The position numbers were made by a program, and so were the translations under genes. A model generated the notes under the pieces. That model was not told the DNA's origin. It saw only the letters and a list, made by a program, of their open reading frames with translations, and did no database searches. A stretch of DNA of 58,259 nt, the filler included, from Jimgerdemannia flammicorona (taxonomy: Eukaryota): the NCBI GenBank assembly GCA_003990765.1. It is 3 parts of 3 records of this genome, joined end to end, with 100 filler letters (N's around TTAATTAATTAA, not from the genome) between each part and the next. Parts side by side here need not be neighbours in the genome. Positions count along the whole stretch, not along the records: positions 19,456 to 38,810 come from RBNJ01001958.1; 2 more parts are not named here. One strand, written 5' to 3'. Below, piece by piece: positions 16,600 to 47,282 of the stretch. The first letter of the stretch is position 1. Each line of letters begins with the position of its first letter.

Positions 16600-18530
16600 A
16601 TCTCATCACCAGATAGATCCAAGCATTTCTCTGCCTCTAACTCACCCTCCACTACTGCTTGAGCATCCAGTGCTTCCAAGATTTCCTGATACTTCACCCC
16701 ATCTACAATCTCTATTTCCATCTGATAGTCTGTATACACTACTCTCTACTTCTCCAACCTCTTTCTCAAATTCCACAAATAAGCTACCTGATTATTCACA
16801 ATCTCTCAAAAGGCTTTCTCTCTCTGGTCATCTACTTGATATTCCTCTGACTCTAAGAGCACTGCCAGTATCTCATTTCTATTCATCTTCAGCACCTTCT
16901 CTCCATGGATAATTTCCTTCCAATATCTATCACTTAGGACCCAGAAGTCCTCTCTTCCCAGCTTCTCAGCTACCACCCCCTCCAGGGTCTTCCACAGCTA
17001 CTTCTCTTCATCCACCACCTCAGCAACACTCCTGGCAACTCCTTTAACTTCCACCACAGGGTCCACCAAGACATCTCTCCTCTCTGACTCATCCCACTTC
17101 TCCTCCAATATATCCAGTAGTTCCTCCTCTCTACCTGCTCTACTTGGGACTCTATACTGAGAGTAGACTTTCTCATCCATTTTGGTATCCACCACCATAT
17201 CACTCCTTCCCTCCTTACTCAAACCACTCTGGACCACAACTTGAGTCATTCTGTACTCCTCTGTTCAAGCACTCTCCCTCAGTCCAACACCCCCTTCTTC
17301 TGTCCTGCCATCTGCCCTACTCTCTCCCATCTTCTCCAGCAGCTCCTTCTGTATATATCTCTCCTGCATCTTCTCCTAGGCCCTCTTATCCATCCTGACC
17401 TTCTTTCTATCTATAATCTCTACCACTATCTTGACTTCATACTCCTTCCAAGTCAATCACCTCCTCTCTACTACTTCTGCCAGATTCTCAAGAGTCTTCA
17501 GCAAGTCTTTCTCCTCCTCTGGCATCTCTTTTACCTGTGAGACCTTACACTCTACCAGTCTCCACTTAAGAGTCACTAGTCAGTCCCTCATCTTCCCTAT
17601 ATTCTCCTTTCCAACCAGTCTCACCTGGATGTCAACATCTCTAGTCCAGAGCTTAGTACCCTTCCAGACTCTGAACCTGATGTCCATGATCTCTCCATAC
17701 TCCTTGACTACCTCCACAATCAACTCTCTGGCCCTCTCCCTTGACACTATAAGAAGATCTAACACTATCAATTATATCACTCTAGGGTCCAGGTATATGC
17801 ACCTAGTTATAGAAACTACTACTCTACCCACTATTACCCCCTTCTCCATAGTCTCCAACATCAATATCTCTTCCTTAAATTCAATCTCAACTTCTTCTTT
17901 CCCCTTCAAGAACTTCACCAAAGCCACCCCCTTTATCTCCTGCACCACCAGCCCTAAAATCATCCTTGCAGTCACCACCAAGCTCCAGAAGTACAATATG
18001 ATGACAAATTTCAATCTTGATTTCTTGAGTAATAGTATTGATACCATGTCTGTCACACCATCAGCCAGGTCTCTGGGCCTCATGCCCACCCTCTGCCCTG
18101 AACTGTCAACCATTATCATATCTAGATTTTTTTTCCAAATCTCCAGTTACAGCTCCATCAGCAGTCACATCTCCAGCCCCTACTCTCCCCCCTCCTCTAC
18201 TGTCTGACTCTCCCATGGGGGCCCCTTCCTATCTCTCAACTAAAGCTATTGATGCCTTCCCCAGTTCCAACTAACTATCCAGCCCAGATGTCATTCTCTC
18301 TATCTTGACCTTGTTAGCAAAGGTCATTCTCTCTCCTCCTTGTTGCTGCAGTCTACCTCTCTCTCTACCACCAGCACCATGACCAGCCATAGAGGGCCCT
18401 GGTATCCCCAAACTATCTCTCCACCTCCTCTCTACATACTGCTAGTCAAAGATACTGCTGCTCTCCTGGTTGACATACTCACCAGTATATTTATTGCTAT
18501 CTATATTGATAGTCTCCTTTCATCAAAAAC
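16600..18530 (-). pseudogene. LINE ORF1 (RRM-like region, charged C-terminal part), decayed
   Basis: ORF fragments 17772-18119, 17580-17771 (KEYGEIMDIRFRVWKGTKLWTRDVDIQV) and 16998-17249, lying upstream of ORF2. Confidence 0.7.
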
Positions 18531-19335
18531 ATTATAAAAAGTATTGTCTGAGTCTTGTATTATCTGAATGTTACTGGTGAAAGGGGATATATATATCTGA
18601 AGATCTGATGAATCTTCTTGGCTGTCCTTATTTTATATATATCTATGAGAGTAGTATCTTGTAGCTCTTGAGGGCTGGCTTGAGGGAATTCCTAGTAGAG
18701 GAGGTTTCTTATTATATATTCTTACCATATCTGGAGATATTTAGTAGTAATGGTGATTCTTGTTTCCATCTCACAGTAGTAGAAAATATAATGATAAGAG
18801 TTACTAATATCCAGGTTAACACTAGAAGTTCTTGTGGTATGGATCCTTATGGCTCTTCAGATGTCTTGGAATATTCTTTCCTAGACTGAGAGGCCTTGGT
18901 GGTTTCTTAATCTTGAGATTTGGCAAGCAGTAGATATTTTTTTTATAATAAGTCTTTGAGCTATTTTAGAATTAGTGGGTCTTATTGAGTTACTACTACT
19001 ATAGTTCCTTGATCCTTTTTTATATTTCTCAAGATATTTGTATTGTAGTTCCAATGACTTATAGTTGGTCATTATTGCCATCTTGTAGCCTGGGTGAGTT
19101 ATGCCATATGATCTTCTTGTGCTCCAATCTAGTGGCTTGTAAGGAATTACTGTCTCTTATACTGATGTCATTATTTTGAGATTACTATTATACTATATAG
19201 AGTAATAACTAATACATAATATTATAGAGCTTAAATATATAACTACCTACAGATTACAGAGAAATTAACTATTGAAAGAATATATTATTTCAAAATATAA
19301 TTAATTAGAAGATATATCTTGAATTGCATTATCAA

Positions 19336-19355: not shown

Positions 19356-19455
19356 NNNNNNNNNNNNNNNNNNNNNNNNNNNNNNNNNNNNNNNNNNNNT
19401 TAATTAATTAANNNNNNNNNNNNNNNNNNNNNNNNNNNNNNNNNNNNNNNNNNNN
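19356..19455. other. Artificial contig linker (N44-TTAATTAATTAA-N44)
   Basis: Six-frame stop linker, exactly 100 nt, repeated identically at 38811-38910. Confidence 0.98.
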
Positions 19456-21230
19456 ACCCTATTCACCGAACTCCTTGCACTACACCCAGCAAGTCAAGAC
19501 GAAGAAGGTCTTATTGAAGCCTTCTTTACTCTTCTCAACAAGAGTTTTGTCAGCTCCACAAATCCGAGCGACCTAGGACAACTAGCAGCAGTCTTTCTAG
19601 CCTTAGTTCCTCATGAAGCCCAAGCCTCTGTAGCCAAGTGACTCAACTCTACCAACTTTCACCATACCAGGACTAAGACTGCCTTATACTACCGATTCCA
19701 GAACAGCAAGGCCCGCCATATCCTCAAAGAAGAAGCAAGAGAAACCCTTCATCAACTACCTGACCCCGAACCTGAAGCAGGCCCTGCTACAACCCTACCT
19801 GAATCTGAATCCAATACCGAACCTGAACTTGACTTTGAATTAAGTCCATCTGAAATCAGATATATAACTGATTCTGTCTACTTTGATGCCGAGCAAACCC
19901 AATTACACGGGGACCAAACTGAAGAAGAGGAGGAGTATCTTACCAAATTTGATCCCGGATACACCACCGAAGGAGACACACATCCATCAGGACAGAATAC
20001 ACCTACACAGCAACAAACAGCTATCTATCAAGCCCTCACTCCAGATCTACAACTACTACTTCAGCAACTTACACAGACCCAAAGAACCCCATCACACTCT
20101 GCACCAGTACCTCAAGTAGTACCAGTAACACCACTACCAGCAGTCCAACTATCTCCAGTAAACAACATGGCGAACCAACAGATTCTAGACCTTACAGCCC
20201 AAGTAGCTATAATGGCAGCAATCATTACTGCCTTAGCCAAACAGACCCGACCTACCAAAAATCTGAGCCTACCTACCTTCAATGGTACTGCACAAGAAGT
20301 CCAAAGCTTCATTAGTGTAGTTGACACCAACTTTGAAGCCAATCAATGGACCAATGAATGAGTTGCTGACCACGTTCTGATAAACAATCAAGACCACACC
20401 CTAGAACAACTCTTTGCTACAACTACAGCCTATGTCCGCTGAGTTGTTATATTCTTCCAAGGACCTGCCGAAGAATGGTGGCGAACCCTTCCTGAAAAAC
20501 CCCTCACATGGGATACCCGACCTGCAGTAGTTGCTCAGAATGCAGCAAACAATACCCCAGGATATGGAGCCCATCCTGCAGCCCCTGGACTCAAACAACT
20601 CATGATTGTCCAATATCACAGCGAGACCATGATTGCTGAATCTCAAGTAAAACTCCGCAACCTCAAATTTGATGTACATGGCAAAGAAGAATTTGAAACC
20701 TTCTGTATAAACCTCGAGTCACTCCTGAACACTGTTGGCCTAGGATATATTGCCAATGACAAAGCATGAAATGGTACAAGAGCAGACCATTTATTCGATG
20801 CCCTGCCTGAATGGCTTACTAGAAAAATCTGAGAACAAGGCCGTCCAGTTGGTTGTGATCACCAACAATGGTGCCTGGCAAGAATCAAGACCATGGTCAA
20901 GCGAATCCTAACAGCTGGACCAATTCTGCCCCGAAGACAATTCAACAACAAGAAAAAGACTTGGACCAAGAAAGAAGAACCCAAGCATGAAGCATCTCGA
21001 GCTCTCTCCACATCCACCTCTTGGACACCCAGAAATCATGAACCCAGCCAGCCAAGCACCTTCAAGAAACTCACTGAAGGTGAAAGGAATAAACTTCGAA
21101 GAAGTGGAGTATGCTTCTATTGCCGAAAGATAGGACACATGGTCAGTGCCTGCCCCAACCGAAAACCCCGAACAGTAACACGAGCAACTGTTACCACTCT
21201 GCACCACCTCAATAATCTGACCACCAGAAC
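19456..21230 (+). pseudogene. gag: Gag of element B, with >230-aa acidic/Pro-rich N-terminal extension and CCHC knuckle
   Basis: In frame from 19456 through LPTFNGTAQEVQSFI to CFYCRKIGHMVSAC. Confidence 0.85.
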
Positions 21231-21640
21231 ACTAGACTTTGTCAAGTTAAGACAAACTGCTAAGGCCCCAACCAAAGGAAGTCAAAAAGCAGCTGGATAT
21301 GACCTGTATGTAGCCGAAGAGCTACAGTTTCCAACTGAGAAGTCAAACAAGTCTATACAGGAATCAGTATCCAAATCCCTGAAGGACATGTTGGAAGAAT
21401 ATGCTGTCACAGCAGCCTAGCGCTGAAAGGACTCTCAGTAGAAGGAGGAGTCATTGACGAAGATTATACAGGCGAAATCATTGTCCTCATTCGAAACCAC
21501 AGTTGGACACCCTTCAAGATCCCTATTGGCTTCTGCATTGCCCAGATCCTATTCGAAAAAATCGAGTCAACCCTCACAGTCAAAGAAGTCCCTGAACTAC
21601 TACCCACCATCTGAGGATCCAAAGGATTTGGCTCATCAAA
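21231..21640 (+). pseudogene. dut: dUTPase fused directly after the nucleocapsid (element B), with a 1-nt frameshift near 21320
   Basis: AAGYDL, (H/R)SSLA, GGVIDEDYTG, (C/R)IAQ and (R)GSKGFGSS. Confidence 0.92.
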
Positions 21641-21849
21641 CAAAGCCCCAGCTCAACCTACCATGAGCAAAGAAAAACAATTATACAAGAAGATTGAAGA
21701 TGGATATGTACCAAGTGGCTGATGCCCTCATGGTATTGGAATGTACTCTTCCTGAATGATCGATGATTGCTTTTCTTGTGTCAATGAACTGGCTCAAAGA
21801 AGAACCAACAGAAGGAAAGCTCCTATAACTGAAATTACCAGCATTGGAT

Positions 21850-24800
21850 CAGACAAACTGCTTACCCTTAAAGCCTTTGTCAACGGAGCACCTGTCAAGA
21901 TTATGATAGACAGTGGTGCCTCAGGCAATTTCATCAATAAGGAGACAGCCAACAGACTCGAGGTCTTCACCTCCCCAGTATAGCAAACTCAAGCAGTTGC
22001 TACAGCTGATGGAACCTCACATGTTATTAGCAAAGAAGTCTGCAATCTACCCTTCTGAATTGGCGACTACCGAGTACATGTTACCCTCCAAATCGTACCA
22101 CTTCCTGACAATGAAATTATCCTTGGAACTCCATGGTTAAAACAAGAGAACCCCATGATCGATTGGGTAAACCATTCTCTGACCATCAAGAAAGGACGCC
22201 ACAACTTCAAACTACAAGGCGAGAAGGACCCACTCAATACTAGTGCCCCAGGACCAAAGATCACCCACATCAACAAGCTACAACTCAAGAAATTGGCCAA
22301 GAAATGCCCTCTCTTCGTCATCTCCATCCGACCATCCAAAGGAGAACCCGAGAACTCTGAAGAAGATTTTTCCAAAGTGGACAGCCATGTCAGACCACTA
22401 CTCCAGAAATTCCGAGACATATTCCCAAAGAAACTCCCGAAAGGCCTACCTCCCAAACGAGCAGTAGATCATGCCATCAAGACTATCCCAGATGCCAAAC
22501 CAGCCTTCAAGTCAATCTACCACATGTCTCCGAGAGAAATTGATGCACTCAAGAAGGAAATCGACGAACTCTTAGAACAAGGATTCATCAGGCCCAGCGT
22601 ATCACCCTATGGTGCACCAGTCCTCTTTGTTGTTAAAAAAGGAGGAGACCTGCAAATGTACATTGACTACCATGACCTCAATGAATAGACCATCAAGAAC
22701 TGTTGCCCACTACCGAGGATTGATGAAATATTCAATAGGCTCACCAACCCACAATTCATGAGCTCTTTTGACCTACGAAATGGTTACTGGCAAATTGCCA
22801 TGAAAGAAGAAGACATCTACAAGACAGCTTTCCGAACTCGCTATGGACACTTCGAGTTCCTGGTTATGCCCTTTGGCTTAACCAATGCTCCAGCAACCTT
22901 CCAGACACTGATGAATACCATTCTGCATCCATATCTGGACAAATTCGTTGTTGTCTACATTGATGACATCCTAGTCTTCAGCAAAACCCTAGAAGAACAT
23001 CTTGAACACCTCGAACTAGTACTACTGAAACTCCAAGAAAACCGACTCTTTGCAAAACTCAGCAAGTGCGAATTTCTCCTGAAAGAAATTCAATTCCTTG
23101 GACACATTGTCACTCCAAATGGAATCAAAGTGGACCCCAGCAAAATCTCTGCAATCAAAGATTGGCCCAGACCGAAGAAGCTGAAAGACCTCCAGTCATT
23201 CCTGGGATTAGCAAACTATTACAGGCGATTTGTTGCCAACTTTGCTAAAATCGCTACCACCCTCACCCAAATGACCAAGCACAGCAAGAAACAAGAATAA
23301 CCCTGGACCATGAAACAAGAGAAAGACTTCAACAATCTTGTAAATTGGGGACCTGAACAAGATACCGCCTTCCAAGCACTAAAAGATGCCCTGATAACCA
23401 CACCAGTACTTCAAGCGGCAAACCCTGCCCTACCATATGAAGTCACCACTGATGCCTCTGACCTAGCTTTTGGAGCAGTGCTCATGCAAGAAGGACACCC
23501 TGTGGCCTATCACTCCCGTAAGTTCAATGATGCCGAAATCAACTACGCAACTCACGAGAAGGAAATGCTAGCCATTGTAGACACTCTGATCAAATGGCGA
23601 CCATATCTAGAAGGAGCACACTTTACCATATTGACTGACCACAAGTCATTAGTCAACATCAAGACCCAGGCTACCCTTTCTCGAAAGCAAGCTAGATGGA
23701 TGAAAGTCCTCACCAACTTTGATTATGAAATCCAGTACCGCCCTGACAAGGAAAATATTGTTGCCAATGTAATCTCCAGACCACCAATCGAAGAGGTTAT
23801 CCAAACCCTAACCTTGGTTACCAATACTATCATGGAACAAATCATCACAGCATGTGTAGATAATAAAGAAGCTCAAGCACTCCGAGAAATCCTGAACAAT
23901 GATGATACTGATAAACATACCCAGTACAACCAATACCAACTCAAGGACAATGCTATCTACTATAAGGACAGACTGTATGTTCCGAACAACCGAGATCTCC
24001 GAAGGACTATCTTATTCAAATGTCATGATGCCCCTACAGCTGGACATTTAGGATTCGATAAATGTTACAAAGTTATCTCCCGAAACTTCTATTGGCCCCG
24101 CATGGCAGATCAGCTCAAAACCTACATCACTTCCTGTGATACCTGCCAAAGAAACAAATCCTCAACACTAGCAAAACCCGGCTTACTCCACCCTATTCCA
24201 GTACCATCTGCAAATTGGAAACAAATCTCTATAGACTTCATTGTACAACTACCCCGAACCAAGAACGGAAAAGATACAATTGTTGTCTTTATGGACTATC
24301 TCAGCAAACAAGCCCACTTTGTATCTACTACCACTACTGCAACAGCACCAGACATAGCCACACTCTTGTTTGATAATATCTTCCGCTATCATGGTCTTCC
24401 CAAGATCATTGTTAGTGACTGAGATCCGAAATTCACCAGCCACTTTTGGAAAGCCCTCCATGCGCACCTTAGAACAAAACTTGCACTATCCACAGCCTTT
24501 CACCCTGAAACCGACAGCCAAACCAAAAGAATGAACCGAACTCTGGAACAAATGCTAAGGAACTATGTCTCCTACAGACAAGATGATTGGCATGAACATC
24601 TCACCGCAGTTGAGTTTGCCTACAACAACAGCAAGCAAGCCTCTCTTGGAATGACCCCATTCTTCGCCAATACTGGACAAAACCCAAACACCTCTTTGAC
24701 ACTTATCCGAACTACTGAAGAACCCTCCACAGTCGAAGCAGTTGAAGAATTCCTACTCCGAATGCGCAATCTAAGCCAGATCGCAATTGAGAATTTATCA

Positions 24801-25302
24801 CGAGCTCAAGAACAACAGTCACAGTATGTTAACCAACACCACCAAGAAGAAACTTTTGATATTGGAGAAAAAGTCCTACTAGACATCAGAGGATACCAAT
24901 TTGACAACCTCAAGCACAGACCATCTACAAAGCTGAACAGCAAGTTCATTGGACCATTTGAAGTCATCACACAAGTCTCTCCAACCTCCTACAAACTGGC
25001 ACTACCGGACACCATTAAGATTCACCCAGTCTTTAATGTTCAACGTCTCAAGTGATACAATGATATGTAATAATGACGAGCTATTTCCCAACCGGACCAC
25101 CAAACCACCTGCACCTATTATTATTAATGACCAAGAAGAATATGAAGTTGAACAAATCCTCAACAAACGTGGCAACAAGAACCATCCCAAGTACCTTATC
25201 AAATGGAAAGGTTACCCGATCCACAATGCAACCTGGGAACCCAAGACCAATCTCCAGAATGCTACCAACCTAGTTCAGGAATATGATTCCTTGAACAACT
25301 AG
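21850..25302 (+). pseudogene. pol: Pol of element B: protease, RT, RNase H, integrase (GPF), chromodomain
   Basis: [47 protein letters not shown]...SD; GPF; chromodomain EYEVEQILN...YLIKWKGY...TWEP. Confidence 0.96.
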
Positions 25303-25711
25303 AACCAAATACTCTGCACCTATCCATATATACCATATATTATCCTCCTGAACATTATAATTATTGTGAATCAAACCAAGACAAGAATACCGACCCTCTG
25401 GAAAAATAGCAAAACTGAAAGCAAGCCTATTCCCCCTATACCACTGGTGGGAAATGAGGCATAGACATTTAAGAAGATTCCTTAGAGGAAATTCTCCAGC
25501 AGTGAATGACGTCAGAATCACTTCCGGTGCATGGCATTGAACACATGACCCTTTAATGTGTGAATCCAATGCGTTAGGCAACTGTACTACAAGCATGTCA
25601 CTTTCTGAGAAAATGGACCTTACCAGACTTTTGACCTCCCAAATAGTGTAACAACACTAGAACAAATTAGAAGGCCCTGACAAGGACGTTGAAAGCTAAG
25701 AAGGGGAGAGT

Positions 25712-27775
25712 TGTAAGTGCACAACCCCCAAGCCACTGAAATTACACGTCACCCTCTGAACAAGCCACTGAAATCACACATGACCTCCGAACAAATCTGG
25801 AAATCACCTGCATGATCATAGAGCTGAGTCAAACCGAAGTCACAGTGCACAAAGCTGAGTCAATATGAAGTCATAGAACACAAGATCTACACAAACGGAA
25901 CCTTACCAATCAGGACCAAATGCATATATACCGAGCACTGAGATGCGTCAAATCAGAGAACCAAAACAAACAATAACCACAACTTCCAAACACACAAATA
26001 TGATCACTGAGATCTACAACCGCATCCGCGCTGACATTTGGAATGCTATTATCAACCGAGCCACACCCCCTCTGCCCCTCATGAATATCCATAGCCTGGC
26101 ACCCCTCTACTTCGTGGAAGCCAGATGGAATGCCCTGAACATGCTTAACGAGGCCCACCGAATCGGACAAATCTCAAGCTACTATCAGATCGGCCGCCTC
26201 CTGGAAGATATGGTTGAACACCACCATGATACAGACATTACCCAGATGTCTCAACACCAGAAGCTCATCACCCGCAAACATCGAGAACTCTTCTATGAGT
26301 ATAACACCTTTATTCTCCGCCTCCGAGTTACTACTAGCGAAATGGTTGCTACCCTGTCCTATGGCCAAATCGATGACATGATACAAGAACTCAACCACAA
26401 GTACCTCGAATATGTCCAGACCACCTACAGAACCTTCCCGCACCCTGACGACCATATCCTGCAAATGCCTCAAGTCGGATACACCATGAAGGATGTCTAT
26501 GATATAATCCACTTCGATGAAGATGAAGCAGAAGACAATGATCCCTCTGACGCCGACATGACCTCTAGCCAAGGATCTCTGCCAACCCTGATCACTCCGC
26601 CAATCTTGCCAATGAACTTACAACAGTTCATAACTACATATGAGACCTATTGGGACAATGACCACTGGCACGAATACTAACCTGCGTTTACCCCTGACTA
26701 CTTCAACTATAATGAAGAGACCGGAGAACACAACCTGTACCTCCAAACAACCCTAGAAATCGAACCAACAACCCCACCACCTGAGTACGAGCGACTCGAA
26801 CCACAGCCGCCAGCTTACTACAACCCCGCGACTCATAGTGCTGTAACTTATAGAAGGTATGCAGACAGCGAATCCAATGAAAGCGAAGACAGTACACCCA
26901 TCCTTCGCCCACCAACACCTTATCCAGCATACGAAACAGACGATGCTATCCTATGGGATGGAGATGAAGTCCCAATGTATTACTACCTTAGCCAACAAGG
27001 AGAAGTAATCCACGAACCACTCTTCCTAGACGACTACTTCATCAGAGATGATGCAATCGATGGTGATGTCATCGAAGACTAACCAGATAGTGCCTAAATC
27101 TATAAATAGTCTAGCAGTCATAGTATAGTTAGATTAGCCTTGTACGACGTGACTGTGAACTGACTCAGCAGTCAGATGATCTCTTGACATGTCAGATCAC
27201 ACTTATACTACATAACTACATTCCGACTCAGTAAGGCACTTAGTGCTACATCTATATTCAGCATAGTCCAGATAGCCCCTCACTAGTATAAATACCCCCT
27301 CTCCCAGACCTCAGAATCTCAGACTTGAACAATCTGAACACAACTCCTGAGCACTTCCCCACAATACCCCTTCATACAAATACTCCTAGTATAGCAATAT
27401 CATGAATAGCAAATAAACCTATTCCATAAACCACAAACCACTCTTAAGTAAATCCGCTCACTGTTAGGTCCTACTCCTAACCCTGTCACGAAACTTCCTA
27501 ATTGGGTATTGTCTGCAGCGATATGCCAATTCAACTAAGCTGGTCTTAGTTTCTTGAACTTCCTGAAATACGGAAAATCCTGAACATCCAGAACTAGTCT
27601 GGAAAAGGACTTTGGTTGAGATGTTAACCCGATCTTGAAATCAATAAGTGTAGAGGATGTACTCCATACAAAATTGATCTTGACCATAAGAAAACGGTCT
27701 TCCGGAACATCCAGAATATCCAGAAAACCTTTCCAGAACTACATAACGGTCACCCTAAAAAGTAACCCTCTGACA
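25712..27775 (+). repeat. 3' LTR of element B (2064 bp)
   Basis: TG...CA termini directly after the PPT. TATAAATACCCC at ~27288 and AATAAA at ~27412. Confidence 0.88.
25943..27082 (+). CDS. LTR-encoded accessory ORF of unknown function (245 aa, plus an in-frame ~133-aa continuation after one TAA)
   Basis: ORF 25943-26680 stays open in the same frame to 27082. Homologous decayed copy at ~30470-31640, and a motif match to the family-A LTR ORF. Confidence 0.7.
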
Positions 27776-28529
27776 ATAGGGACCACTTCTCCACCCACCA
27801 CTACTCTCTTCTCCACAGCTTCCAACAATGATATCTCTTCCTCAAATCCAACCTTGACCCCTTCTTTCCCCTTCAAGAACTTCACTAAAGCTGCCCCCTT
27901 TACCTCCTATGCCATCAGCCCCAAAATCATCCTCACAGTCACTGCAAAGCCTCAGAAGCACAATGTGACTGCATATTCTAACCTTGACTTTTTGAGTAAT
28001 AGTGCTGACACTATGTCTATCATGCCATCAGCCAGGTCTCCAGGCCTCATGCCCTCCCTCCCTCTGTCCTGATCTGCTGACAACTGTCATATCAGGATTT
28101 TTTTCCAGATCCCCAGTTACAGCTCTATCAGCCATTACACCCCTAGCCTCTACACCCCCCCCCCCTACTGCCAGACCCTCCCATGGGGGCCCCTCTCTGT
28201 CCCCCAGCTGAAGCTATTGACACCTTCTCCAATCTCAGCCAACTATCCAGACCAGATGTCAGTAAAGGTCATCCTCCCTCCTCCTTGCTGCCTCATTCCA
28301 CCCCTCCCTCCACTACCAACATTATAGCCAACCATAGAGAGCTCTGGTATCTCCAACCTGTCTCCTCACCTTCTCCCAACCTGCTGCCAGTCAAAGGCCC
28401 TATTGTCCCTCTGGCTGATACATGTATCAGTATACTTATTACTGCCCATATTGATAGTATCCTTTTATCAAAAACATTGCAAAAAGTATTGTCTGAGTCT
28501 TGTATTATCTGAATGTTATCAGTGAAAGG
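27776..28529 (-). mobile_element. 5' end (UTR and ORF1 start) of a second copy of the LINE
   Basis: High similarity to 17809-18584, including the 5' terminus. Confidence 0.88.
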
Positions 28530-28860
28530 TGTGTTCCACCATAATGTACTTTGATGAGAGTTTTTCTTTGTCCATCACCCTCTTTGGGGTGGCAGGGGCT
28601 ATTCTATTCAGCTCAAGCATGGTCTTGTATATATGTTGGGGTTTTGGGTATGTGTTTTTGATCATTAGTGTATGACTGAGTTCCCTCTGATAGTAGGGAG
28701 AGCATGGTGCACAGAATGAGATGCAGGCCAACATAGGCCCTACTATATCTGGAATTGTTGAGCTACTGAACAATAGTGAGTAGTGCTTGATGAGTAGTGG
28801 GGGAGAGTTTTGTCCTATATAGTCTAGATTCTCTTCCAATAACCTTGGGACTTTGAGTCC

Positions 28861-28899: not shown

Positions 28900-31784
28900 C
28901 TATGGCTATACTTCCTTAGCTTCTCTATTATTTACTGGATGTGCTGCAGATGTTCTTTGGCTGTCTTCCTGTAGATGATAATATTATCTATATAAACTAT
29001 CATCCATCTTCCCATATCATAGTGGAAGATATTATTCATCATTCACTAAAAGTATGCTGATATATTATACATTCCAAATGGTATTCACAGATAGATATAG
29101 ATTTTATCTGGAGTGATAAAGAATGATTTTTCACTTGCTACTTTGGTGAGGCCAATCTGGTAGAATTCTGAGTATAAATCCAAGATACTCTAATACTGTG
29201 ATTTATCTTACAGAGTTACAAGGATATTACTGATGAGAGATAGTAATTAGTAATCCTTCTTTATAGACAGTTTGAGCTTCCTGTAATCAGTACAGAATTT
29301 TGGAGCAAATTCTCCTAGTTTGCTTTCTTTTTTCAGGACTAATATGACTGATAATGCCTAAGAACTGCTGGTTTCTTTGATGATACTGACTTCTTCCATC
29401 TGCTTGATTTCTTCTTTGAGCCATTCACAATAGGCTAGTGATTGGTCTTGTTTTTTGGTAGATTGGTTCAGTCTCCCCTATATCTATATTATGGTAATAG
29501 TGTGGAGTTTTTTCCTTAATATCCTTGAAGTCTGTAGCCAGTACATTCTCAAATTCATTTGAGTTCCTTCTTTAGTAAGAATTTATTTCCAATAGTATAG
29601 CTGTGCTTGTTTGTAGTTTTCTCCTTCTTGTGATCTAGTTCAGTGGTCTTCATTTTGTATTGAGCTGATCCTTCAGGACTTACTTGATCTCATCTGTATA
29701 GTAGGTGGTTTAAAGCCAGATCTTCTGTACTGTAGACATGATATCATCATCATTTTCCACATGGGTTGCAGCTGTGAATACTACTCTTACTGGTCCTTAG
29801 AGACTAAAGAGTATGAGAGCTACTTGCTGTCTTACTATCAGAGTTCTTATAGTAGTATACTGCTTGAAATCATCAATAAAGGTGATGATTAATTTATCTG
29901 AAGTATATCTATGGAATACCAGTGGTCTCGTATCTATCTTATCTGAATATCTTGGTTCAATTTGTATGGTTATTTAGATGGTAGCAGTTGTTCATTATTC
30001 ACCCTGAAAGTGACAGATTTATCTTAAATTATCAGCCAATAGGCACTAAGTTGTAATGTAGCAGATACATAACTATATAAGTATATCAGATTTCTGTATC
30101 TTGAAAACTTGATCTTTGTTGACTCTGTAGAGTCATTGGTTACAGGGGTGGGTAAGTTCAAAGTATATCTGCCTGCAGGCTTACTAGTTCTCATATTTTC
30201 TCTTTGCTTTGAACTATTTTGATATGAAGTTTATTTACTCTAGATACTGAGGATATCTATACAAGTTTGCTAGCTATAAGGTGGCTAAGTTATGTATCAC
30301 TTTTCACATATATTGAATCTTTTGACATCTGCTAAATCTTTGATAATTACCCAAATTTTAATATTTGTAAGGAGTTTAACATTTGCTAAAACTTTAATAT
30401 TTGTGAAATAACTGCTATTTGTAAGGCTATACTATATTTGGAAATCAGATTTAAGTACTATGATTAAATGTCTATTCTTCTGATTCATGTTTCTAATTCA
30501 GATCAATGATTATATCATCTAGAAAAAGTAATTCTTGAATTATTCATATTTTTCTATTTATTTATATAGTAATATATTGGAATAAAATGATTATCTTATA
30601 GGATGACATCATTTGTTTCATAAGCTAGATATAATATTATTTATTAGAGAAAAGGTACTTTATCATCACTTTTATCAGATTTACTATCAGTATACCTTTG
30701 ATAGGTTATGGTACTATATATTGCACATTTGTAGAATACTAAAGATTGTTCTTTATATCATTTATATTCAGTAGATAGAGTTATTGGTTCTATCTCAAGA
30801 GTTGTCTAGAGGTATAGATTATATTCATCTGTTTCTTTATTATAGTTAAAGTAGTTTAATATAAATATAGATTAGTACTTATACTAATGGTCATTATTTC
30901 AATAGTAATTATAGATAGTTATAAACTATTATAAGTTCATCAGTAGGGCTAGCAGAGTGATCAGAGTTGGTAGAGATTTTTGATTGAAAAGTATCTCAGT
31001 ATTAGAGAGATCATTGTTTTCTGCTTCATTATTGATAAAATAGATTTTATTCTCAATTTCCTTTATGGTATATTTAACTTAGAATATTTACAGATTATAG
31101 TTATCTAAATATCAGAAGGGTGTTTCAGAAGTTTGAATATACTTGATATATTTTTGATTAAGTTCTTATACTATATCATCAATTTGGCCATAGGTCAGAG
31201 TGGCAAACATTTCAGCAGTAGTAACTTGGAGGTATAGAATAAAGACACTATACTCATAAAAGAATTCTTGGTATTTATATATAATGAGTTTCTGATATTG
31301 AAATATTTTGATAATATTGGTAATATAGTAATAGTTAATTATATAGCTTTAAAAAAATATCTAATTTGATAGTAGTTTGAGATTTATCTAATTTTGTAGA
31401 CTTTGCTAAGTATGTTTAGAGTATTCTATCAGACTTTTACCAAGTAGAGAGATGCTAGGCTATAGATATTCATGAGAGATAAGAGTATTATTGTGTAGTT
31501 TATAATAATATTCCAAATATCAGCATAGATGCAGTTATAGAATTCAGTGGGCATATCTTGATATATATTGAAGATTATGATTATTTGTTATAGTTCTCTG
31601 TTTTGATATATGTACTATATGTCTGGTATATATATATATAATCTTAATTAGTAAATTTCTATTTGTTTATAAGTCTTATATTCTATATCTTTATATTAAC
31701 TCAAGTTTATGATCTTATATATGCTTTCTAGATTTGTTCTATAGTGATGTACAATATTGGTAGCTTGGAGGTTGTACACTTACT
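28896..31784 (-). mobile_element. Internally deleted Gypsy element C (clade-A gag/RT; 5' LTR 30052-31784 with a B-type U3 ORF)
   Basis: RT KKESKLGEFAPKFCTDYRKL and VYIDN. Gag YYTDEIK*VLKDQLNT is fused to the pre-RT region near 29655, so PR and dUTPase are deleted. PBS is homologous to element A. The LTR start matches TGTAAGTGCACAACCCCCAAGCC. Confidence 0.78.
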
Positions 31785-32900
31785 GGAGCTGAGATCTTAG
31801 ATTTCATTCTTATTCTTCTACTATTCTTTTATAGTTTCCTTCTCTCTTAAATATCTCTAGAGGAATTCTTAAAGACTCTTAACCATGAGATTTTTCTTGT
31901 CTTCTTTCTTATAGTTATTTTAAGTAATTTCTTACTTGATATCAAAAAATTCTTAGACTACATATACTTACTTATCAGGTTTCTTAATATCAAGAGTGTG
32001 GATATATTGCATAATATTGAGAGGAATTCTATTCTTAAAGGTCATTGTACTAACAATATCTTTGTTAGCAGTATTAAATCTTGCAATATGTATTCACTTC
32101 TAAATTCTTGTAAAAAATACACATAGGGATTCCTTAATATCTATAATAGATTCTTAGACTTTGTAGCAAGATTCTGTTCCTATATACTTCTCAATAAGCT
32201 AGTGAGAGATGGCTTAATATTGTTTAGCATTATAGTATATATCAGCTATAACTTATTCTAGATTGGAGTTGGGATCATTTGATATTTTAATGAAGATTAT
32301 TTTAGCTCACTCTCTTATTTTATATCTTGAAGACTATAATATATCTCCCAGAAGTAAGGTCCTTTAGAGTTATAATTCTTTCAAAAGTATCTAAGAATTC
32401 CTTTAGGTCTTCTTCTGGATACTCTGCAAATATTGATAGTATACTGTCATTTTGTTATCACTATCTTCTAGTTCTTCTTTAGATCCTGAATCTATTTCAC
32501 TTGTTGAAGGTATACTAAGTCTGATTGGGCTACTGAGAGTTAAAGAATATATTTGGTCTTTGGAGTACTGGGATACTTCTTGATATTCTTGAAAATACTA
32601 AACTTATAGGATCTGCTGGCTCAGATAAGGGTGAGATAGAAAGAGAATGAAAATCTGACAATATGATCTTCAAGTTCTTATAAAAGTTTATTAAAATTTT
32701 AGATAGAGTTTTTTATATTATCTAATTGATCTGACTGGATCAGATCTTTTAGTAATAAGTGTGCTAGTATTTCAGAAGTGTTTACAAGCTGAACTCTTAG
32801 TAATTAAACTAGTGGTTAAGGATTTTCCATATACTATACTGATCTCTGGTTAGAATTCTTCTGATACTAGACAGTTGGTGAGTCTTAAGATAATTACTTC
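31785..32900 (-). pseudogene. Heavily decayed gag-like sequence of a further LTR element
   Basis: LSIFAEYPEEDLKEFLDTFERII near 32430 resembles the Gag capsid N-terminus. No CpG remains. Confidence 0.45.
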
Positions 32901-35900
32901 TCTTCTTGTCCAAATACTACTAATTTAATTCTCCTTTAGTAATTAAGATTGGTGCTATATCAAAGACATTCAGTTTGACTGTTGGGCTCTTGAAGCTAAA
33001 AATTCATATAGATTTTCAAAAAAATCTTATTAGTTAAGCCTCAAAATATAATATACTGCTTCAATAGAAGCAAACTATAAGATTGAACAGCTATATAGAT
33101 TGGATTGAGCCCTCAGTTACTTGGTCAAAAAGTAACATAATATTCAAAGGTTTTAATTCTAAAGGTGCAAGTTCTGTTGTTTATATTATAGATGATTTTT
33201 AGTAACTTTCTTAATGGGTGAATTTGATATAATATGGTACATTTGGTAAATATCTCTAGATGATATAGATTATTAAATATGGATTTTGCATAATACAGCA
33301 AGTTTGGTAGATTTCTTTAAGTATATTGTTCTTCAGATTTTATTTGGTAAGTAAATCAAAATAGTAGAGTCTTTAAATTTAGGCTTAATTGATAAGTAGA
33401 CCAAAATGGGTAGATTTTTTTGGCCCATCAACTGCTTTATTTGTACTAACAAGTTTAGTTTAAAAGTGCATCTGACTGACTAGCTTTAGTCAAAGTAGGG
33501 TGGACCTCTCTTTAGGCTTAATCTAAGAAGTAGACCAAAAATATAATGGATTTTTTAAGTTCTTCTGGCTTAGTCTGTCAAGTATACCAAAATATAAAAG
33601 ATTTCTCCTCTAGCTTAGTCTGGTAAGTATACTTTAATCAGATCTTTTTTATATCAGAAAGTGGACCAGAGTAGAAAAGAAAGCTTACAACTTCTTAGTA
33701 GTGGCTTATTGGCAGAAGTTCTCCTCCTAATATACCAGATAATTGGCTTTTGCTTTTTGAACTTTTCAGACTGAGGTGTATTTACTTAAATCTCTGGGAT
33801 ATTTTTTACAAGTGTGGTTGCTATCTGGTTACTATCTGGGTAATTATAGTATATATAGTAATGCTAATTGAGGAAGGTATTCCTGTTGGGTAGGGGTGTA
33901 TCTATTGGGTATAGGTGTAACTGAGCAGCATAAGTATTCCAGGTAGAAATGGAATTTGTCCTAATTTAGTATTTTAGGCTATTTATACAATGAGCATTGC
34001 ATAAAAGTAACTATAGGGGTAACTATGCTAGGTATTTTGTACATCATCTGGTTATACTGTAAAGTTTGCTTGTCACAATATAATGTAATCCTATATTTCG
34101 TATTGGATTTCGGATCATCCGATTCGATTCAATCGTCACAGGCAGTCGCTCGATGCAGTTATTCAGTTTGCAATCCGTGGATAATTTTAATTTCCGTTTT
34201 GTGGTCATTAAAACATCCTTTACTTACGAATTGTCAGAGATTATTGAGTGCCTACTATATGTATGAGAGGTTTCATTAGAAATCGCAGGAGGAATGTTCC
34301 GGACGCCGTATAGACGGCGCAAGGGTTTCGGCATGGTGTAGGTCTTTGGCGCCAACATGCTCACTTTTGTATTAGCTAGGAAGCGCCTCCCTATCATGCT
34401 GTCCAACCATCGCATCTGGTTTCACTCAAATACATACGCTTTACACATATACTCAGCATGCGTACCCATTTTCGCTACCTCCCTCCCTCCCGTCTTCTGT
34501 ACATTTCGATTTTTGTTTTATGTACCATTGGTTCTGGGCTGGTTTTGTTCATCGCATCCACTCTTCTCGCGCCTTTTTCTCTTCCCAAATATATGAACAT
34601 TGAACTTCAATCATGGTTTTTCTCTTCGCTGTTGTTCCGATGTCTGCGAGTTGGGTTCAAGTGGTTCTTCACGATGCAACTTTACTCGAGGAGAAGCGTA
34701 GGGTTCAAACATTACAGCTAGACATTGAATATCGTTTAATCTCGGGATTTGACTGTATAATCACTATAATGATATTTTTTCTTTATATTCGTGAATTAGC
34801 GGCGAGGGAGAATCGTGGGTTATATAATCTCGCTCGGCAGGCATCGAAATACGAGGATGACAGATGATCCATTCTATTGGTACAAATCAATAAGTGTCAC
34901 TATGTCTTCCCATGTAAATGCTGTCCACCTTATTATCTAAAGAATAGATATGTGGTACTCAAGGTGGCGACCTCGCTCTCCATCTTGAGGCGGAGGAAGA
35001 TGGGGAAAGCAAAGCGGCCGATACCATCAGAGCATCATCCATAGTAAGGAGGTCGACTTCGTGGGTTGAGTTTGGATAGCTTTTGGAGGAAATGAGTATA
35101 TATTGAATTACAGAATACACTTTCAATATCGGAGCAGTCGTCTTCATCCATTAGATTATGTAAGGAGGCTTAGGTATTGTCTACGCCGGTCATTGGCGGG
35201 AAGGAAAGTAATTTCAATTATAAGCCACAAGGGGATCACGTTCCAATGCTCTTGCACAAAAAACGGCCTGCAAACTATATCTTCCACTAAAATGTTGTAC
35301 TGCCCGTTTCCTTGTTTCATATTTGCCTCAGAATGATAGGCCCCCTTGCTGTTTTCCGGGCCATGATGGTTAATTTTCTCTCGTTGATTTGGGAATAATT
35401 GTCATTCTACTCTCAATAATCGCTGGGTGATTATTTGTAGCTCTGCGTTTGATCGTTGTTTGATATCCGAAATTTGGATAAGAAGCAACCCGATCCGAAA
35501 ATAATAAACTGACCAAATATATACGTGTTTAAATAGATCCTATCCCATCCGATCCTTTCCGAACCTTTAAGTCAAATTACACATTAAGCGGCACAGAAAT
35601 ATAATTGCGTCGAATCATGGCTTAAAAAAAAAAATGAAAGAGGTAGAGATAAGTATTAAAGGTTGAACCTTTTATACTCGGGTTTAGTAGATGGAATACC
35701 ATTTCCTTCTCTGCGTCTGCAACATCGGAATGAGCAACATCTCGTTTCGCACCCCTACTATTCCGAATCATATTGCAAAAGCAGTCATTCTGCCTCCTAA
35801 GCAATGGCGGCAAACCTCAGGTTCAACATTACAATGATTGAATACTTTATTTCATGTGACCTTACCCAAAACTCAACAGCCATCCAATGTTCCACAGCGA

Positions 35901-36564
35901 ATATCTTCTGCTAGCATCAAAATCTGGTGATTTGATGATTGGCGAAGTGATTGCTTTTTGGGGGTCACGTATATACTCGAGTTAAAGATTTGATGACTAC
36001 TGTTCGTATGAAACGAAGCTCAGACTGCCGTTGACGTTTTGCTTGTGACCGATAATTACCTCATTATTTGTATTCTTTGTTCATGTGTTGATACAGCCTA
36101 GCACTTGAATCATTCCGCCTGCGCCCCTGACCTTCAATTTCTTCTTCCCTTCTGCAGCCAAATTTTCTAAAATAAAATAACTTCGACTCAACATGTCTAT
36201 TTTGTTTATTACTGTCAGGTCAGGCATACATGGAAGAGAAATTGTATGGGCTGCTGTTATGACAGCTTGCCTTTCCGAAACATGCAAATATGTTGAGACT
36301 GCAGCATAATGATCCCACACACAAAGACGGCAAAAATCCACAAAAAAACGTCCATAATAGATCATTGGTATTCGTTCTATCAATCTCGCAATACAAATTA
36401 CTTCGCAGGAGCCGCGAAAAAATCGCGAGCCCAAAACCCGACTCACCCAATTCTTCAACGCACAACCCTATATTTAACAATGCCAATGCCCATCGGCCTC
36501 CTGTTCTTTCATATAATGAAGGGCGACCTCGATCATATCATAAATCCTAAGCAATATGGCTCAT

Positions 36565-36756
36565 CAAGCACCACGGCTGCTAGGTTATCAAGCACCACGG
36601 TGGCTAGGTTATTGAGCACCACGGCGGCTAGGTTATCAAACTCCACGGCGGCTAGGATATCGACCGCCACGGCGGCTAGGTTATCGAGCACCACGGCTTC
36701 TAGGTTATCAAACTCCACGGCGGCTAGGTTAACGAGCGCCACGGCGGCTAGTTTAT
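36565..36756. repeat. 24-bp minisatellite, 8 units, CpG intact
   Basis: Consensus CRAGCACCACGGCGGCTAGGTTAT. Lies in ORF 36309-36773 as SSTTAARL repeats. Confidence 0.92.
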
Positions 36757-37359
36757 TGCCGACGTTTGCGTAGGCTGAAATCGTGTCACTTGAAGGCTTT
36801 TTGTATCCGTCAGCAAAAATTCGTCATGGTTCTGTACCGCGTTGTAAATGCACGGAGTTTTTTCACGAGTTCGGTTGAGTCTGCTTTGTGGGCACGAAAA
36901 GGGAGAAGATATTAAAAATTTGTGGGGAAAATGAAGTAGAGGCTATTGTTACCCCTGCGACGTTTAAAGTAAGGTTCTTTGTGATGACGAGGAGTGGGTT
37001 GACGATCACGCGATAGCAAACTGCTCGCGGGTTCCCTGCATAAAGAAGAAAGATTGGCACGGTCAGAATGGCTGGAAAAAAATTATCGCAATTTATGTAT
37101 CCCAAAAAAATGCAAAAAACAAAAAACAACAAACAAAAAAATCCCCACGATTCCCAAATGCACTCAATCTTTCCTCTTCTACACTACGTACCAATGTTGA
37201 CGCACAATTGTCCAAATAGATGCTCCAAGCAGCCTCCACGCACCATCCTTGGGGGAAACACTACCCGCTCGTTTTTAATCTTCAATACAAAATATGATTC
37301 AACGAGGAACTTCATCCCGTGGAGCATATTATCGATGTAATCGGCCGCCTCGGTCCAGC

Positions 37360-38290
37360 AAAGATGTCGCCCAAGCCGTGCACCGTGTCCACAACTCTCC
37401 GCCGATGTTTTTCCTGATAACAGCGTGGAAGTAAGCATGCTTACGTAACGCTTTACTCGCAGAAGGCATGCCATAGAGTCGTAGAAAGCCTTGAAGCTAT
37501 CTTTCTGAATTCCCCACCTCACGAAGTCCTTCCTACCCTGTGCCATTCATAGCGGAACAACGGTCCGCCGCAGTTCCTCCTACTCACAACATAGAAAGAT
37601 GCATCCTTCGGCAACGCCATACACGCAATAGGTGGAGATTGCTGCCCTAAGTGATGTACACTGAATCGGAGGAAACAGAGTCGGAACCTTCGTCCTGAAT
37701 TCTCCACCTCAAAGTCCAGTCCAGCCGATGCCGTTCACAGCGTCACAACTGTCCGTCGCGGTTCCTCCTATTCACAGCAAGGAAACGTGGTTCCTTCGGC
37801 AACGCCACACAGCAATAGGTAGATTTTTGCCCTACGGGACGCAGACTGAATCGACGAAAAAAGTCGTGAATCGATCTTTTTGAATTTCCCACCTCATAAA
37901 GTCCTGCCTAGCCAATTCCGTTGACTGCATCACAAATGTCCGCCGAGGTTCGTCCTAGTCCCAGCATGGAGGGATGCATGCTTCGACGACGCCATACTCG
38001 CAGCAGGTGGAGTTGTTGTAACAGCATTCGCAACGTGATATACTGTGAGTGGAAGAAACAGAGCCGGAAAGATGACCACACCAAGTCCTGCCTAGCCTAT
38101 GCCGTTCGCAACGCCCGCAATTTTGTGCTGAGGTCCTAGCATTAATAGGCAGAATTCTGTAGCTGCGATGTACACCGAGTCAAGAAACCGAGACGATAGG
38201 GAGGCGTCTATCACAAGAATGTCACCATGTCCTAGCCTATGCCGCAGAACTGTCAGCCGATGTTCGTCCTGTGTTAATAGCGGAAATAGA
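37360..38290. repeat. Diverged ~187-bp tandem array, about 5 units
   Basis: AAGTCC anchors at ~37524, 37712, 37899 and 38084. CGGCAACGCCA-like anchors at ~37609, 37797 and 37984. Confidence 0.7.
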
Positions 38291-38810
38291 GTGAGATTTG
38301 CTAGAAACGTCACATGCGAAGTTACCATGATGAAATGACTCAAACCTTACCGTGTCAAATGTGGCGAAATTACTAAATAAATAATTGAATAATGAATAAA
38401 TAAATGAAAAGAAAGTGTTTCAACACCCAATGTTCCCAGGAACATATGTAGGGTTAAAGTCAAAATAAATAAATATCATAGTGTGCCCGCACACAAATGT
38501 TCGCAATAAAAAAAGTAATAATAATAAATAAAAGGGAAATGCTTCGCCACTCATATATATGAATGGCGGCAGAAACTAAAAATTAAAATTAAAATAAAAA
38601 AAGGGGGTTTGGAGCGCAACGTTCGCAATATATAAATAAATAAATAAAAGAATATATAATAAATGGGAAGTGTTTCGACAGTCAATGCTCAAAAAGGTAT
38701 ATGGATGACGATAGAAAGATAAATAAGTGTTTTGCACGCAATGTTCGCAATGAATGAAGCACCTATACGGATGGAGACAGAAAGCCAAGAGAAAAAGGTG
38801 GTGGGGGGGG

Positions 38811-38910
38811 NNNNNNNNNNNNNNNNNNNNNNNNNNNNNNNNNNNNNNNNNNNNTTAATTAATTAANNNNNNNNNNNNNNNNNNNNNNNNNNNNNNNNNN
38901 NNNNNNNNNN
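38811..38910. other. Artificial contig linker
   Basis: N44-TTAATTAATTAA-N44. Confidence 0.98.
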
Positions 38911-40697
38911 ACTTCATCTTTGTCACTTTTTTTTGTAGTCTCTTAGACTCCTTCCTTTATTAATATACCTATCTATTCAATATAAATACATTGAGCCCAC
39001 CCCTATCTGATCCCCCTAGGGGGCCCTCCTCCCCCCACCCCTTTATAATTAAAGATCACTAGATCATTAACCATCACAACCTGCCCATAACTCTGTTTAC
39101 AGATTCCTTCTACTAGATGGCAACAATGCCCATCCTGAGGACTCCAACCCATCCACCACTCTGTCAATAAATCTCCCATCAACCCCTCTCATCTTAACAA
39201 CTTCTCTTGTAGATCCATCTGTTGCCCCTCCTTAAAAACAAAGAGCTAATGTCCAGCCAGCCCTACCTATATAGCTAAAACCCACCCTACAGTGAGTCAT
39301 TCATTACCCACACCTCCCACCAACCTAGTTCTTTAATCTTTCCATCAACCTCTCTCCCCATCTAATCTTCTCTTGACTCCCAACAATTTACCTACTGCTA
39401 ACCAAAAGTTCCCCAGAACCTCACACTCTCCCAGCTAATATTCTGGCATCTGTACAAATCCTCCAACTTGTCCAACATTGTAATACTTCTCACAATCCAG
39501 TTGCTCACTATCTACCAGATGCCTAGCATGGAAATTCAACATGATATTCCTCCATAGCATCTGCCACCATACTACCCAGAACTTAAGAGAAAGCCACCTT
39601 CTTACCTTAGCACTCTATGACCAGACTCCTGCCCAGTCCCACTCCTCACCAATCCCCACTGCTTGCCAACTATTAGGCCAAATATCCTAATCCAGCCCCC
39701 TCTGACACTCTACTCCATCACCAATATTGAACTCAATAAGTGGAGTGCCCCTCAATAGCAGTCTGTCTCATCTCCATATCACTGATCCCCACAGTATCTC
39801 TCCTTTATTGCTATATCAGTATAAGCCAATATGATAAGCTCCATCTACTACCCTCTATAAGAAGTCTTTATATCTTAACCAATGGCTCTCACCCAGACCC
39901 ACCAGTGATAGCAAGTCTCCTGAGGACTCTCTTGGAGAGAATCTCATCTCCCACACCTTCTGCATCAGTGGCACCCATCTTCCTCTCTACAGTTCAACAG
40001 CTCACTTCAGCCACCAAGCTCTCAGATAGTGCAGCTTCTTAGAAAGATCTACCAGTCCTAGCTCCTCTCTAACTATAGGTATGGAAAGGATATCCCAACT
40101 GATCTGAGACTGTCTCCTAGCTCAAATCCAATCTCTAGTCAGCTTCATCAGTCTCTTCACTACCCAAGCTGAGAAGTCTAAGTGATATATAATATACCAC
40201 AGCTTAGGGAATCAGTAGACATTCAGAATTGATACCCAGCCTGCTAGGGAGATGTGGTGACCTCTCCAACTTCTAAGAGCCTCCTCCAGATGGTTACCCT
40301 CCTCTCCCACTATACCTGTGGTAAGACAGATCTATATACTGAGAGGAAGATACCCAGGTACCGCACTGCCTCTTCTGTCAGGACAATTATTATAATGATA
40401 TCTCCTCTTACTAGTCTATTCTCCAACACCATTGTCTCATACTTATGCCAGTCGAGTTTCACTCCAGAGTATGTCTTGTACTATTCCACTATCTTCTTAA
40501 GTACCTCAACATCTGTTACTGATCTAAGTTTAACCACTATATTATCTGCAAAGGCCCTCACCTTCCATACCACTATAGATAGAGAGTTCTGCTATCTTCT
40601 GGCAAATTCTATCCATCAGAGGCTCCAATGAAAGAGTATATAAAATAAGAGACAGTGGATCTCCCTCTCCCCAAGAGAAATATCAGACCTCGGTGAC
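38911..40697 (+). mobile_element. CpG-depleted repeat remnant, probably a non-LTR retrotransposon fragment
   Basis: CxxC...H-C-like stretch (PHCLFCQD...QHHC) near 40360-40435. 39078-39195 is homologous to the reverse of 58120-58230. Confidence 0.35.
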
Positions 40698-40824
40698 TGT
40701 AATAGAATGAATGAGTGAATAGATGAGATGTGATGAGTGATCATGTGACTCAGCAATGACATCATCATACAATTGAGCATGATATATGGGGCATGCTACA
40801 ACAAAACCAGACAAAATGAACATT

Positions 40825-41830: not shown

Positions 41831-41844
41831 ACTAATAATATAAT

Positions 41845-47268: not shown

Positions 47269-47282
47269 ATTATATTATTAGT

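Follow-up and report, generated by a model that had tools for sequence, protein, structure and literature searches.

We analyzed a 58,259-nucleotide stretch of DNA (hereafter the window) assembled from three parts of the Jimgerdemannia flammicorona genome (GCA_003990765.1). The subject is an open reading frame (ORF) associated with a retrotransposon in this window, which we call element B. The ORF is probably a genuine accessory gene of a dUTPase-bearing, chromovirus-type Ty3/gypsy retrotransposon, and it lies wholly in the U3 region of a 2,064-bp long terminal repeat (LTR). Substitutions between element B and a second copy showed that the frame had been maintained as a protein by purifying selection, both in its N-half and in its tail, while the element family replicated. 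The features on which this reading depends are as follows.

25943..27082, plus strand: LTR-borne ORF of 380 codons including stops, or 360 codons from the probable start at ATG 26000.
25712..27775, plus strand: 3' LTR of element B, 2,064 bp, recognized from TG..CA ends, contig joints and flanking homology.
~25712-27320, ~27320-27435 and from there to 27775: predicted U3, R and U5 regions of the LTR, respectively.
25698..25710, plus strand: polypurine tract (PPT), 13 purines just 5' of the LTR, read from the sequence.
27287..27294, plus strand: TATAAATA, presumed TATA box of the LTR promoter.
27412..27417, plus strand: AATAAA, presumed polyadenylation signal in R.
19456..25302, plus strand: gag-pol of element B, a Ty3/gypsy chromovirus, degenerate and cut on its 5' side by N runs.
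19357-19399 and 19413-19455: two N runs at the 5' side of element B, hiding the 5' LTR, the primer-binding site and the start of gag.

Sequence signals, contig joints, flanking homology and the second copy together support 25712-27775 as the LTR, short of an intact 5' LTR. TG at 25712-25713 marks the start of the LTR and CA at 27774-27775 its end, where a short imperfect inverted terminus is present, and the PPT immediately precedes the 3' LTR. Contigs from four public runs (two soil metagenomes and two runs of organism A) were placed on 19456-28600 at a likeness of at least 80%, and the LTR termini recurred among them as contig joints. In run X2, one contig passed from ~26509, with 29 additional diverged letters, back to 25711; a second passed from 27405 back to 25712; and a third passed from 27775 back to 23602. 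This is the pattern that would arise from copies inserted into other copies, and the joints match the predicted termini to the base, which is suggestive rather than strong. Homology to an unrelated repeat family begins exactly at 27776, the next base after the LTR end, and the summed contig depth dropped 15- to 20-fold past 27690 in the four runs. Along the strand, the end of pol (25302) is followed by the PPT (25698-25710) and then by the start of the ORF (25943). The ORF lies wholly between the 5' end of the LTR (25712) and the TATA box (27287), as the first-pass annotation of this DNA had placed it, and not between the pol stop and the PPT, where an internal extra ORF would be found.

The frame consists of two contiguous stop-to-stop pieces, 25877-26680 (267 amino acids) and 26681-27082 (133 amino acids), with the first ATG of the ORF at 25943 and the terminal TAA at 27080-27082. 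We compared its length with 1000 dinucleotide-preserving shuffles of the 2,064-bp LTR, in which the longest open frame was scored in six frames. The longest open frame in the shuffles was 207 codons against 267 observed, and with one stop allowed the shuffle maximum was 244 against 401 observed; none of the 1000 shuffles reached the observed length in either case. The first-pass description of a frame open for 380 codons apart from a TAA at 26678 was confirmed. It had also begun the ORF at ATG 25943; this codon exists, but the conserved start, judged from the position at which the relative P0003 begins, is probably ATG 26000. The strand composition of the ORF, which is A-rich and G-poor (GC skew -0.28, AT skew +0.21), matches that of gag-pol.

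The product is divided into an N-half and a strongly acidic tail. The net charge was -39 over residues 166-360 (195 residues, counting from ATG 26000), and the last 133 residues contain 17 P, 16 E, 14 D and 14 Y. Windows of 40 residues along the tail carried net charges of -5 to -11 and 6-15 W/F/Y/L/I/M residues, as measures of composition only. No cysteine is present in the 379-residue product (25943-27079), and neither a membrane segment nor a signal peptide was found in it, the longest hydrophobic run being 4 residues and the maximum Kyte-Doolittle value over 19 residues (KD19) 0.86. The protein also contains no basic run. Both AlphaFold runs predicted five helices in the N-half (residues 2-145 from ATG 26000), in keeping with the helical N-domain proposed in the first-pass annotation, but at unusable confidence: without an alignment, the mean predicted local distance difference test score (pLDDT) was 34 for the whole protein and 44 for the N-half.

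A second copy of the LTR region was present downstream of element B.

30515..31783, minus strand: copy 2, a hypermutated LTR fragment resembling the products of repeat-induced point mutation (RIP), which begins at the LTR 5' end and carries the ORF.

Copy 2 matched element B at 25713-27033. Copies were compared by Smith-Waterman alignment with strict scoring, under which shuffled sequences score 31-46, and the alignment could not be carried beyond the 27033 equivalent, where it scored 40 and the best shuffle 38. From the alignment, copy 2 is truncated or rearranged. The DNA upstream of it is unrelated to element B and has no abutting purine tract, no pol was detected beside it by tblastn, and no nucleotide match to 19456-25711 was found within 29000-42000 on either strand. 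Because copy 2 starts at the LTR 5' end without pol, the ORF is joined to that end outside a 3' LTR context. The ORF is therefore found in LTRs beyond the 3' LTR of one copy, through a truncated fragment.

Compared with element B, copy 2 showed 175 C>T against 16 T>C differences and 105 G>A against 15 A>G, and its GC content was 24% against 47% in element B. The most frequently mutated sites were CpG (73%) and CpA (57%). An AT-rich block at 29500-34000 (GC 0.25-0.31), which contains copy 2, bears this one-directional C>T/G>A load, a RIP-like signature indicative of a fungal host.

Hypermutation of this type does not make transversions, so these report the earlier divergence of the two lineages. 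Transversions between element B and copy 2 were distributed over codon positions 1, 2 and 3 as 21, 12 and 42, against 23.9, 25.4 and 25.7 expected from base-specific rates (p=1.4e-4). Synonymous changes accounted for 29 of the 75 transversions, against 17.3% expected (p=9e-6). The excess was present in the N-half alone (11/30, p=0.004) and in the tail alone (17/36, p=1e-5), and the short linker showed no such signal, with one of its nine transversions synonymous. Among the best 40 of 1939 differences from other copies, seven of the best-supported fell at or after 26000, and four of these seven were synonymous. The concentration of transversions at third positions and the synonymous excess indicate that the ORF evolved as a protein. 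Loss of the ORF among copies, or its absence from the 5' LTRs of intact copies, had been named at the outset as an observation that would count against it; what the comparison revealed was a conserved coding sequence, and neither condition refuted the ORF.

We searched for relatives of the LTR-ORF protein outside the window. Exhaustive HMMER searching of 1.84 billion representatives returned two matches only, both short metagenomic fragments. P0002, a metagenomic protein of 247 residues with an open frame, was 66% identical over 244 residues. A word-index search gave one match among 1016 candidates of near length and one among 62 candidates of shorter length. With E values up to 10 admitted, PDB sequences gave nothing and Pfam only a meaningless match to TMEM51 (E 7.3); for the N-part, nothing usable came from the ESM Atlas. 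No known DNA-binding signature or domain was found in the N-half in Pfam, PDB sequences or the ESM Atlas, and the protein has no likeness to the gag of element B itself. Two scans of viral contigs and two scans of prokaryote genome contigs gave no match, nor did the first scan of metagenome contigs. The second metagenome scan returned two loci, which were rejected as chance matches. These encode a copia-type gag (Retrotran_gag_2, E 7.6e-9) and were matched through one seeded 8-residue word, with identity at 27 of 94 positions including the seed. As judged from these searches, the LTR-ORF protein is an orphan with no detectable relatives outside the element family. The suggestion, made before any search, that its N-domain recalls expanded Glomeromycotina proteins found no support in the HMMER results.

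The coding region upstream of the LTR identifies element B as a chromovirus. Its domains are ordered as CCHC, dUTPase, protease region, reverse transcriptase, RNase H, integrase and chromodomain. Pfam matches were obtained for dUTPase (1.1e-20), RVT_1 (4.2e-32), RT_RNaseH (1.2e-34), Integrase_H2C2 (6.3e-22), SH3_Tf2-1 (9e-17) and Chromo (9.6e-17), the last five being ordered in this way along 22689-25302; the CCHC knuckle was just below the Pfam cut-off. The gag frame is already open at 19456. In a search of 5.8 billion protein clusters, the nearest pol was a metagenomic protein of 49% identity which also has a dUTPase, and the named pol relatives, from fungi, algae and plants, were 34-43% identical. 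In-frame stops interrupt gag-pol at 19639 (TGA), 22686 (TAG), 23298 (TAA) and 24420 (TGA), and the frame changes once inside the dUTPase and once near 25055-25068. Other copies in the public runs have C at 24420 and lack 4 bases at 25064-25068. From its sequence, this copy of element B is dead, given that gag-pol is broken by stops and frameshifts and that the LTR ORF contains the TAA at 26678. Copies differ in the spacer that separates the pol stop from the PPT (25303-25663), where 76-453 bases are skipped by contigs of three runs, with joints at 25300>25377, 25300>25664, 25446>25664 and 25185>25639.

Several observations weigh against an accessory gene within U3. Each of the three contig joints is a single low-depth contig, placed at a likeness of at least 80%, a setting that carries a tool warning. 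Copy 2 ceases to match at the position corresponding to 27033, which leaves it 49 nt short of the stop codon, and it does not present a complete LTR. No 5' LTR of an intact copy could be seen in the window, since the N runs (19357-19455) cut element B, and the target-site duplication is likewise out of sight; neither blastn nor a transition-tolerant Smith-Waterman search found a 5' LTR partner in the window. In each of the four runs, the summed depth over 27081-27690 reached 4.6-10.9 times the pol level and about double or more the level over the ORF part, so that LTRs with the promoter, R and U5 part but without the ORF, or related families sharing that part, may exist. The functional reading draws on composition, with models at the low pLDDT values given above and an N-half whose net charge is -4, that is, not basic. 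None of 22 listed runs holding the sequence was recorded as RNA, which is not evidence either way.

Some of these observations could be accommodated if the LTR boundary had been miscalled and the ORF were an internal 'ORF3' between pol and an LTR of ~0.7 kb beginning near 27081. The rise in depth at ~27081, the absence of a visible 5' LTR and the end of copy 2 homology at the 27033 equivalent all fit such an arrangement, as does the LTR length of the other gypsy element in the window, which is only ~0.75-0.87 kb. However, no purine run able to serve as a PPT was read in the sequence 3' of the ORF (27083-27286), whereas the 13-nt PPT abuts 25712. Two contig joints lead to 25711/25712 from contexts other than a PPT, and copy 2 starts at 25713 with unrelated DNA and no pol upstream. 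The summed depth over the ORF part (25861-27080) was also about twice that of pol (21591-25250), at 1.9-2.7 times in all four runs, a weak indication, as depth is not copy number. We therefore regard a miscalled boundary as unlikely. That the ORF is a captured fragment of a host gene or a neutral passenger riding in the LTR is less probable still, to the point of being very unlikely. Gene capture by LTR retroelements is known, as the available text of two papers describes (PMC4299795; PMC5408684), and the protein has no retroelement domain. Yet no host-like homolog appeared among the 1.84 billion representatives, the A-rich, G-poor strand composition is that of gag-pol, and the excess of synonymous transversions between two element lineages reflects selection during replication of the element.

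The first-pass annotation had singled out the internal stop and two short motifs in the tail.

26678..26680, plus strand: internal TAA, interpreted as a former Gln codon changed by nonsense mutation.
26774..26788, plus strand: PPPEY, PPxY motif 1, not in P0002 or copy 2.
26807..26818, plus strand: PPAY, PPxY motif 2, not in P0002 or copy 2.

One reading of the TAA at 26678 is that of a conserved read-through or recoding site, which would regulate the ratio of two parts of the protein. In its favor, the aligned codon of copy 2 is likewise TAA. This stop is, however, expected to have arisen independently, given that copy 2 carries 175 C>T changes and that 57% of its CpA sites are mutated. P0002, the sole relative covering the site, has Q, and in this copy of element B gag-pol is interrupted by four further in-frame stops, with C at one of these positions (24420) in other copies. 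This comparison identifies the TAA as a nonsense mutation rather than a recoding signal, and makes conserved read-through extremely improbable.

The two PPxY motifs were present where the first-pass annotation had reported them. PPxY late domains and Rsp5/NEDD4 adaptors are a known motif class, and such motifs could make the protein an Rsp5/NEDD4 adaptor, hijacking the ubiquitin ligase against silencing, or a late-domain factor in budding. PPEY and PPAY stand at residues 279 and 289 (counting from ATG 25943), 10 residues apart in a Pro/Tyr-rich, acidic and probably disordered tail of this copy, as in members of that class, and purifying selection acts on the tail. By chance, at least two PPxY motifs occurred in 1.5% (whole protein) and 1.7% (tail) of 20,000 composition shuffles. 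Unlike in that class, however, the motifs were not conserved, neither of the two relatives keeping either one. P0002, although open for 247 codons, has PLSEY and PLAY at these sites, and copy 2 has L-S-T-E-Y and S-L-V-F-Y. The P>T and Y>F changes in copy 2 are transversions, and therefore cannot be explained by C>T/G>A hypermutation. Each of the P>L/S differences in P0002 is a C>T-type change, and the departures of P0002 from this copy were, by hand count, more often C>T/G>A than the reverse. On these three sequences, Pro may thus be the older state at these sites. The protein contains no PTAP, YPxnL or LPxY motif, and budding is not known for LTR retrotransposons of fungi. A function centered on PPxY, as an adaptor or in budding, is consequently quite unlikely, and the proposal that these motifs form the functional core was not upheld. 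A striking short motif such as PPxY, seen in a single dead copy, should count as evidence of function only after comparison with other copies. Acidic-aromatic clusters, and not PPxY, are common to P0001 and P0002.

Taking the ORF as an accessory gene within U3, we can outline how its product may be made and act. Because U3 lies at the 3' end of the genomic RNA, the protein would need a subgenomic message. This could be a spliced RNA or, with about equal probability, a transcript begun inside the LTR 5' of ATG 26000 and ended at the LTR poly(A) signal. The protein would most likely act in trans for the element. Its N-half, helical in the models, would serve as a binding or oligomerization module, and its tail could act like an acidic activation domain and bring in host machinery, as its composition suggests; acidic, aromatic-rich tails of this kind are generally linked to activation domains. 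A trans-acting adaptor fits best with a helical module joined to a selected acidic tail, in a protein that lacks membrane, zinc and basic features. More specifically, and only tentatively, its composition would be compatible with a role at the LTR promoter, as a transactivator or an anti-silencing factor. As to origin, a shift of plus-strand priming to a polypurine tract 5' of an ORF that had been internal could have brought the gene into the LTR. A further proposal, which we hold to be doubtful, is that each LTR is a self-contained gene, with the ORF driven from a promoter within the first 250 nt and the transcript terminated at the LTR's own poly(A) signal. In that event, both LTRs and every solo LTR would keep making a trans-acting protein that serves the whole family, and the retrotransposon would spread a regulator in the part that survives loss of the element.

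By position, the closest known system is, as an analogy, the 'LTR ORF' sag of mouse mammary tumor virus (MMTV), which encodes a betaretrovirus superantigen. Sag is a type II membrane protein. Both are frames of roughly 320-380 codons within U3, are duplicated with the LTR, and the LTR ORF, like sag, would need a subgenomic message. Unlike Sag, the LTR-ORF protein has no membrane segment, and it has no likeness to Sag in sequence (no Pfam match); the element is a chromovirus of a fungus-like genome rather than a retrovirus. Foamy-virus tas/bet and lentiviral nef are accessory genes at the 3' end of the genome that overlap U3, and foamy-virus Tas joins an acidic activation domain to a binding domain and is served by an internal promoter of its own. 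These genes share with the LTR ORF a 3'-end position reaching into the LTR, and the architecture of Tas is that suggested here for the LTR-ORF protein; however, they only overlap U3, whereas the LTR ORF lies wholly inside it, and no homology was found. The 'LTR ORF' literature, as represented by the available text of papers such as PMC2118998, almost wholly concerns MMTV sag.

Extra ORFs have been described in other LTR retrotransposons. ORF0 of the rice elements Retrosat2/RIRE lies 5' of gag-pol, and the LTRs of Retrosat2 exceed 3.2 kb, according to the accessible part of PMC3485330. The portions available of PMC5408684 and PMC10309623 present the ORF3s of bdelloid elements and CERV of Cer1, respectively, as internal extra ORFs, and an 'add. 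ORF' is known from fungal gypsy elements in the text consulted of PMC2864245. As these sources describe them in the parts seen, such extra ORFs resemble the LTR ORF as lineage-restricted orphans beside gag-pol that evolve faster than pol and are mostly of unknown function. Unlike Retrosat2 ORF0, bdelloid ORF3 and Cer1 CERV, which the same passages describe as internal, the ORF reported here is 3' of the PPT, in the LTR. Gypsy elements or chromoviruses bearing a dUTPase are reported from Postia, Phanerochaete and Tuber (Tmt1) in the available portion of PMC2864245, with the gag-CCHC, dUTPase, protease, reverse transcriptase, RNase H, integrase and chromodomain arrangement of element B. They differ in that an LTR-borne ORF is not mentioned for them in that portion, and the best pol relative of element B is at 49% identity. 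In a literature search that covered sources outside subscription journals, figures and supplements, no fungal retrotransposon with a protein gene in its LTR was found described. A list of fungal element structures in Additional file 1 of PMC2864245 may bear on this negative result.

The window is repeat-rich eukaryotic DNA, whose larger ORFs gave only transposon-related Pfam matches, and no tRNA gene was found in it. Element B is flanked by direct repeats at 17809-18584 and 27776-28529 (75.6%), which belong to a different family and are not its LTRs. The repeat family at 17380-18584 and 27620-28529 is Ser/Thr/Pro-rich, and the right-hand copy starts precisely where the LTR ends, as would be expected from an insertion of element B into it. 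A second gypsy element occupies 143-9485 on the minus strand, with a dUTPase at 3992-4423 and a reverse transcriptase at 2939-3529. It is bounded by direct repeats at ~143-896 and 8612-9485 (87%), and this repeat recurs a third time at 18590-19301, immediately to the left of the N runs. At 56424-57833 there is a third gypsy gag with a dUTPase, which shares 25-40% identity with segments of the element B gag and runs off the window end, and a stretch resembling a gag N-terminus lies at 49267-49596, 6.8 kb upstream of it. No copy of the LTR ORF accompanies either of these two regions. Inverted repeats at 40784-42212 and 46901-48317 (~1.4 kb, 93-94% complementary) enclose ~4.7 kb, and a DUF7869 ORF at 42040-42396 overlaps the end of the left arm. 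The region 40784-48317 is possibly a DNA transposon with long terminal inverted repeats. Tandem repeats of ~188 nt (3 copies) and ~303-323 nt (4 copies) are present at 37524-37998 and 9281-10428, respectively.

LTRs are usually regarded as control regions that do not code for protein, and both annotation pipelines and age estimates take them to evolve neutrally. A gene of 360 codons under selection inside the U3 of a non-retroviral retrotransposon would offer a rare counterpart of MMTV sag and demonstrate that accessory genes can ride in the duplicated part of an element, which outlives the element as a solo LTR. The LTR-ORF protein would also provide a testable candidate for how a fungal chromovirus handles its host, whether at the level of transcription, silencing or the hypermutation defence.

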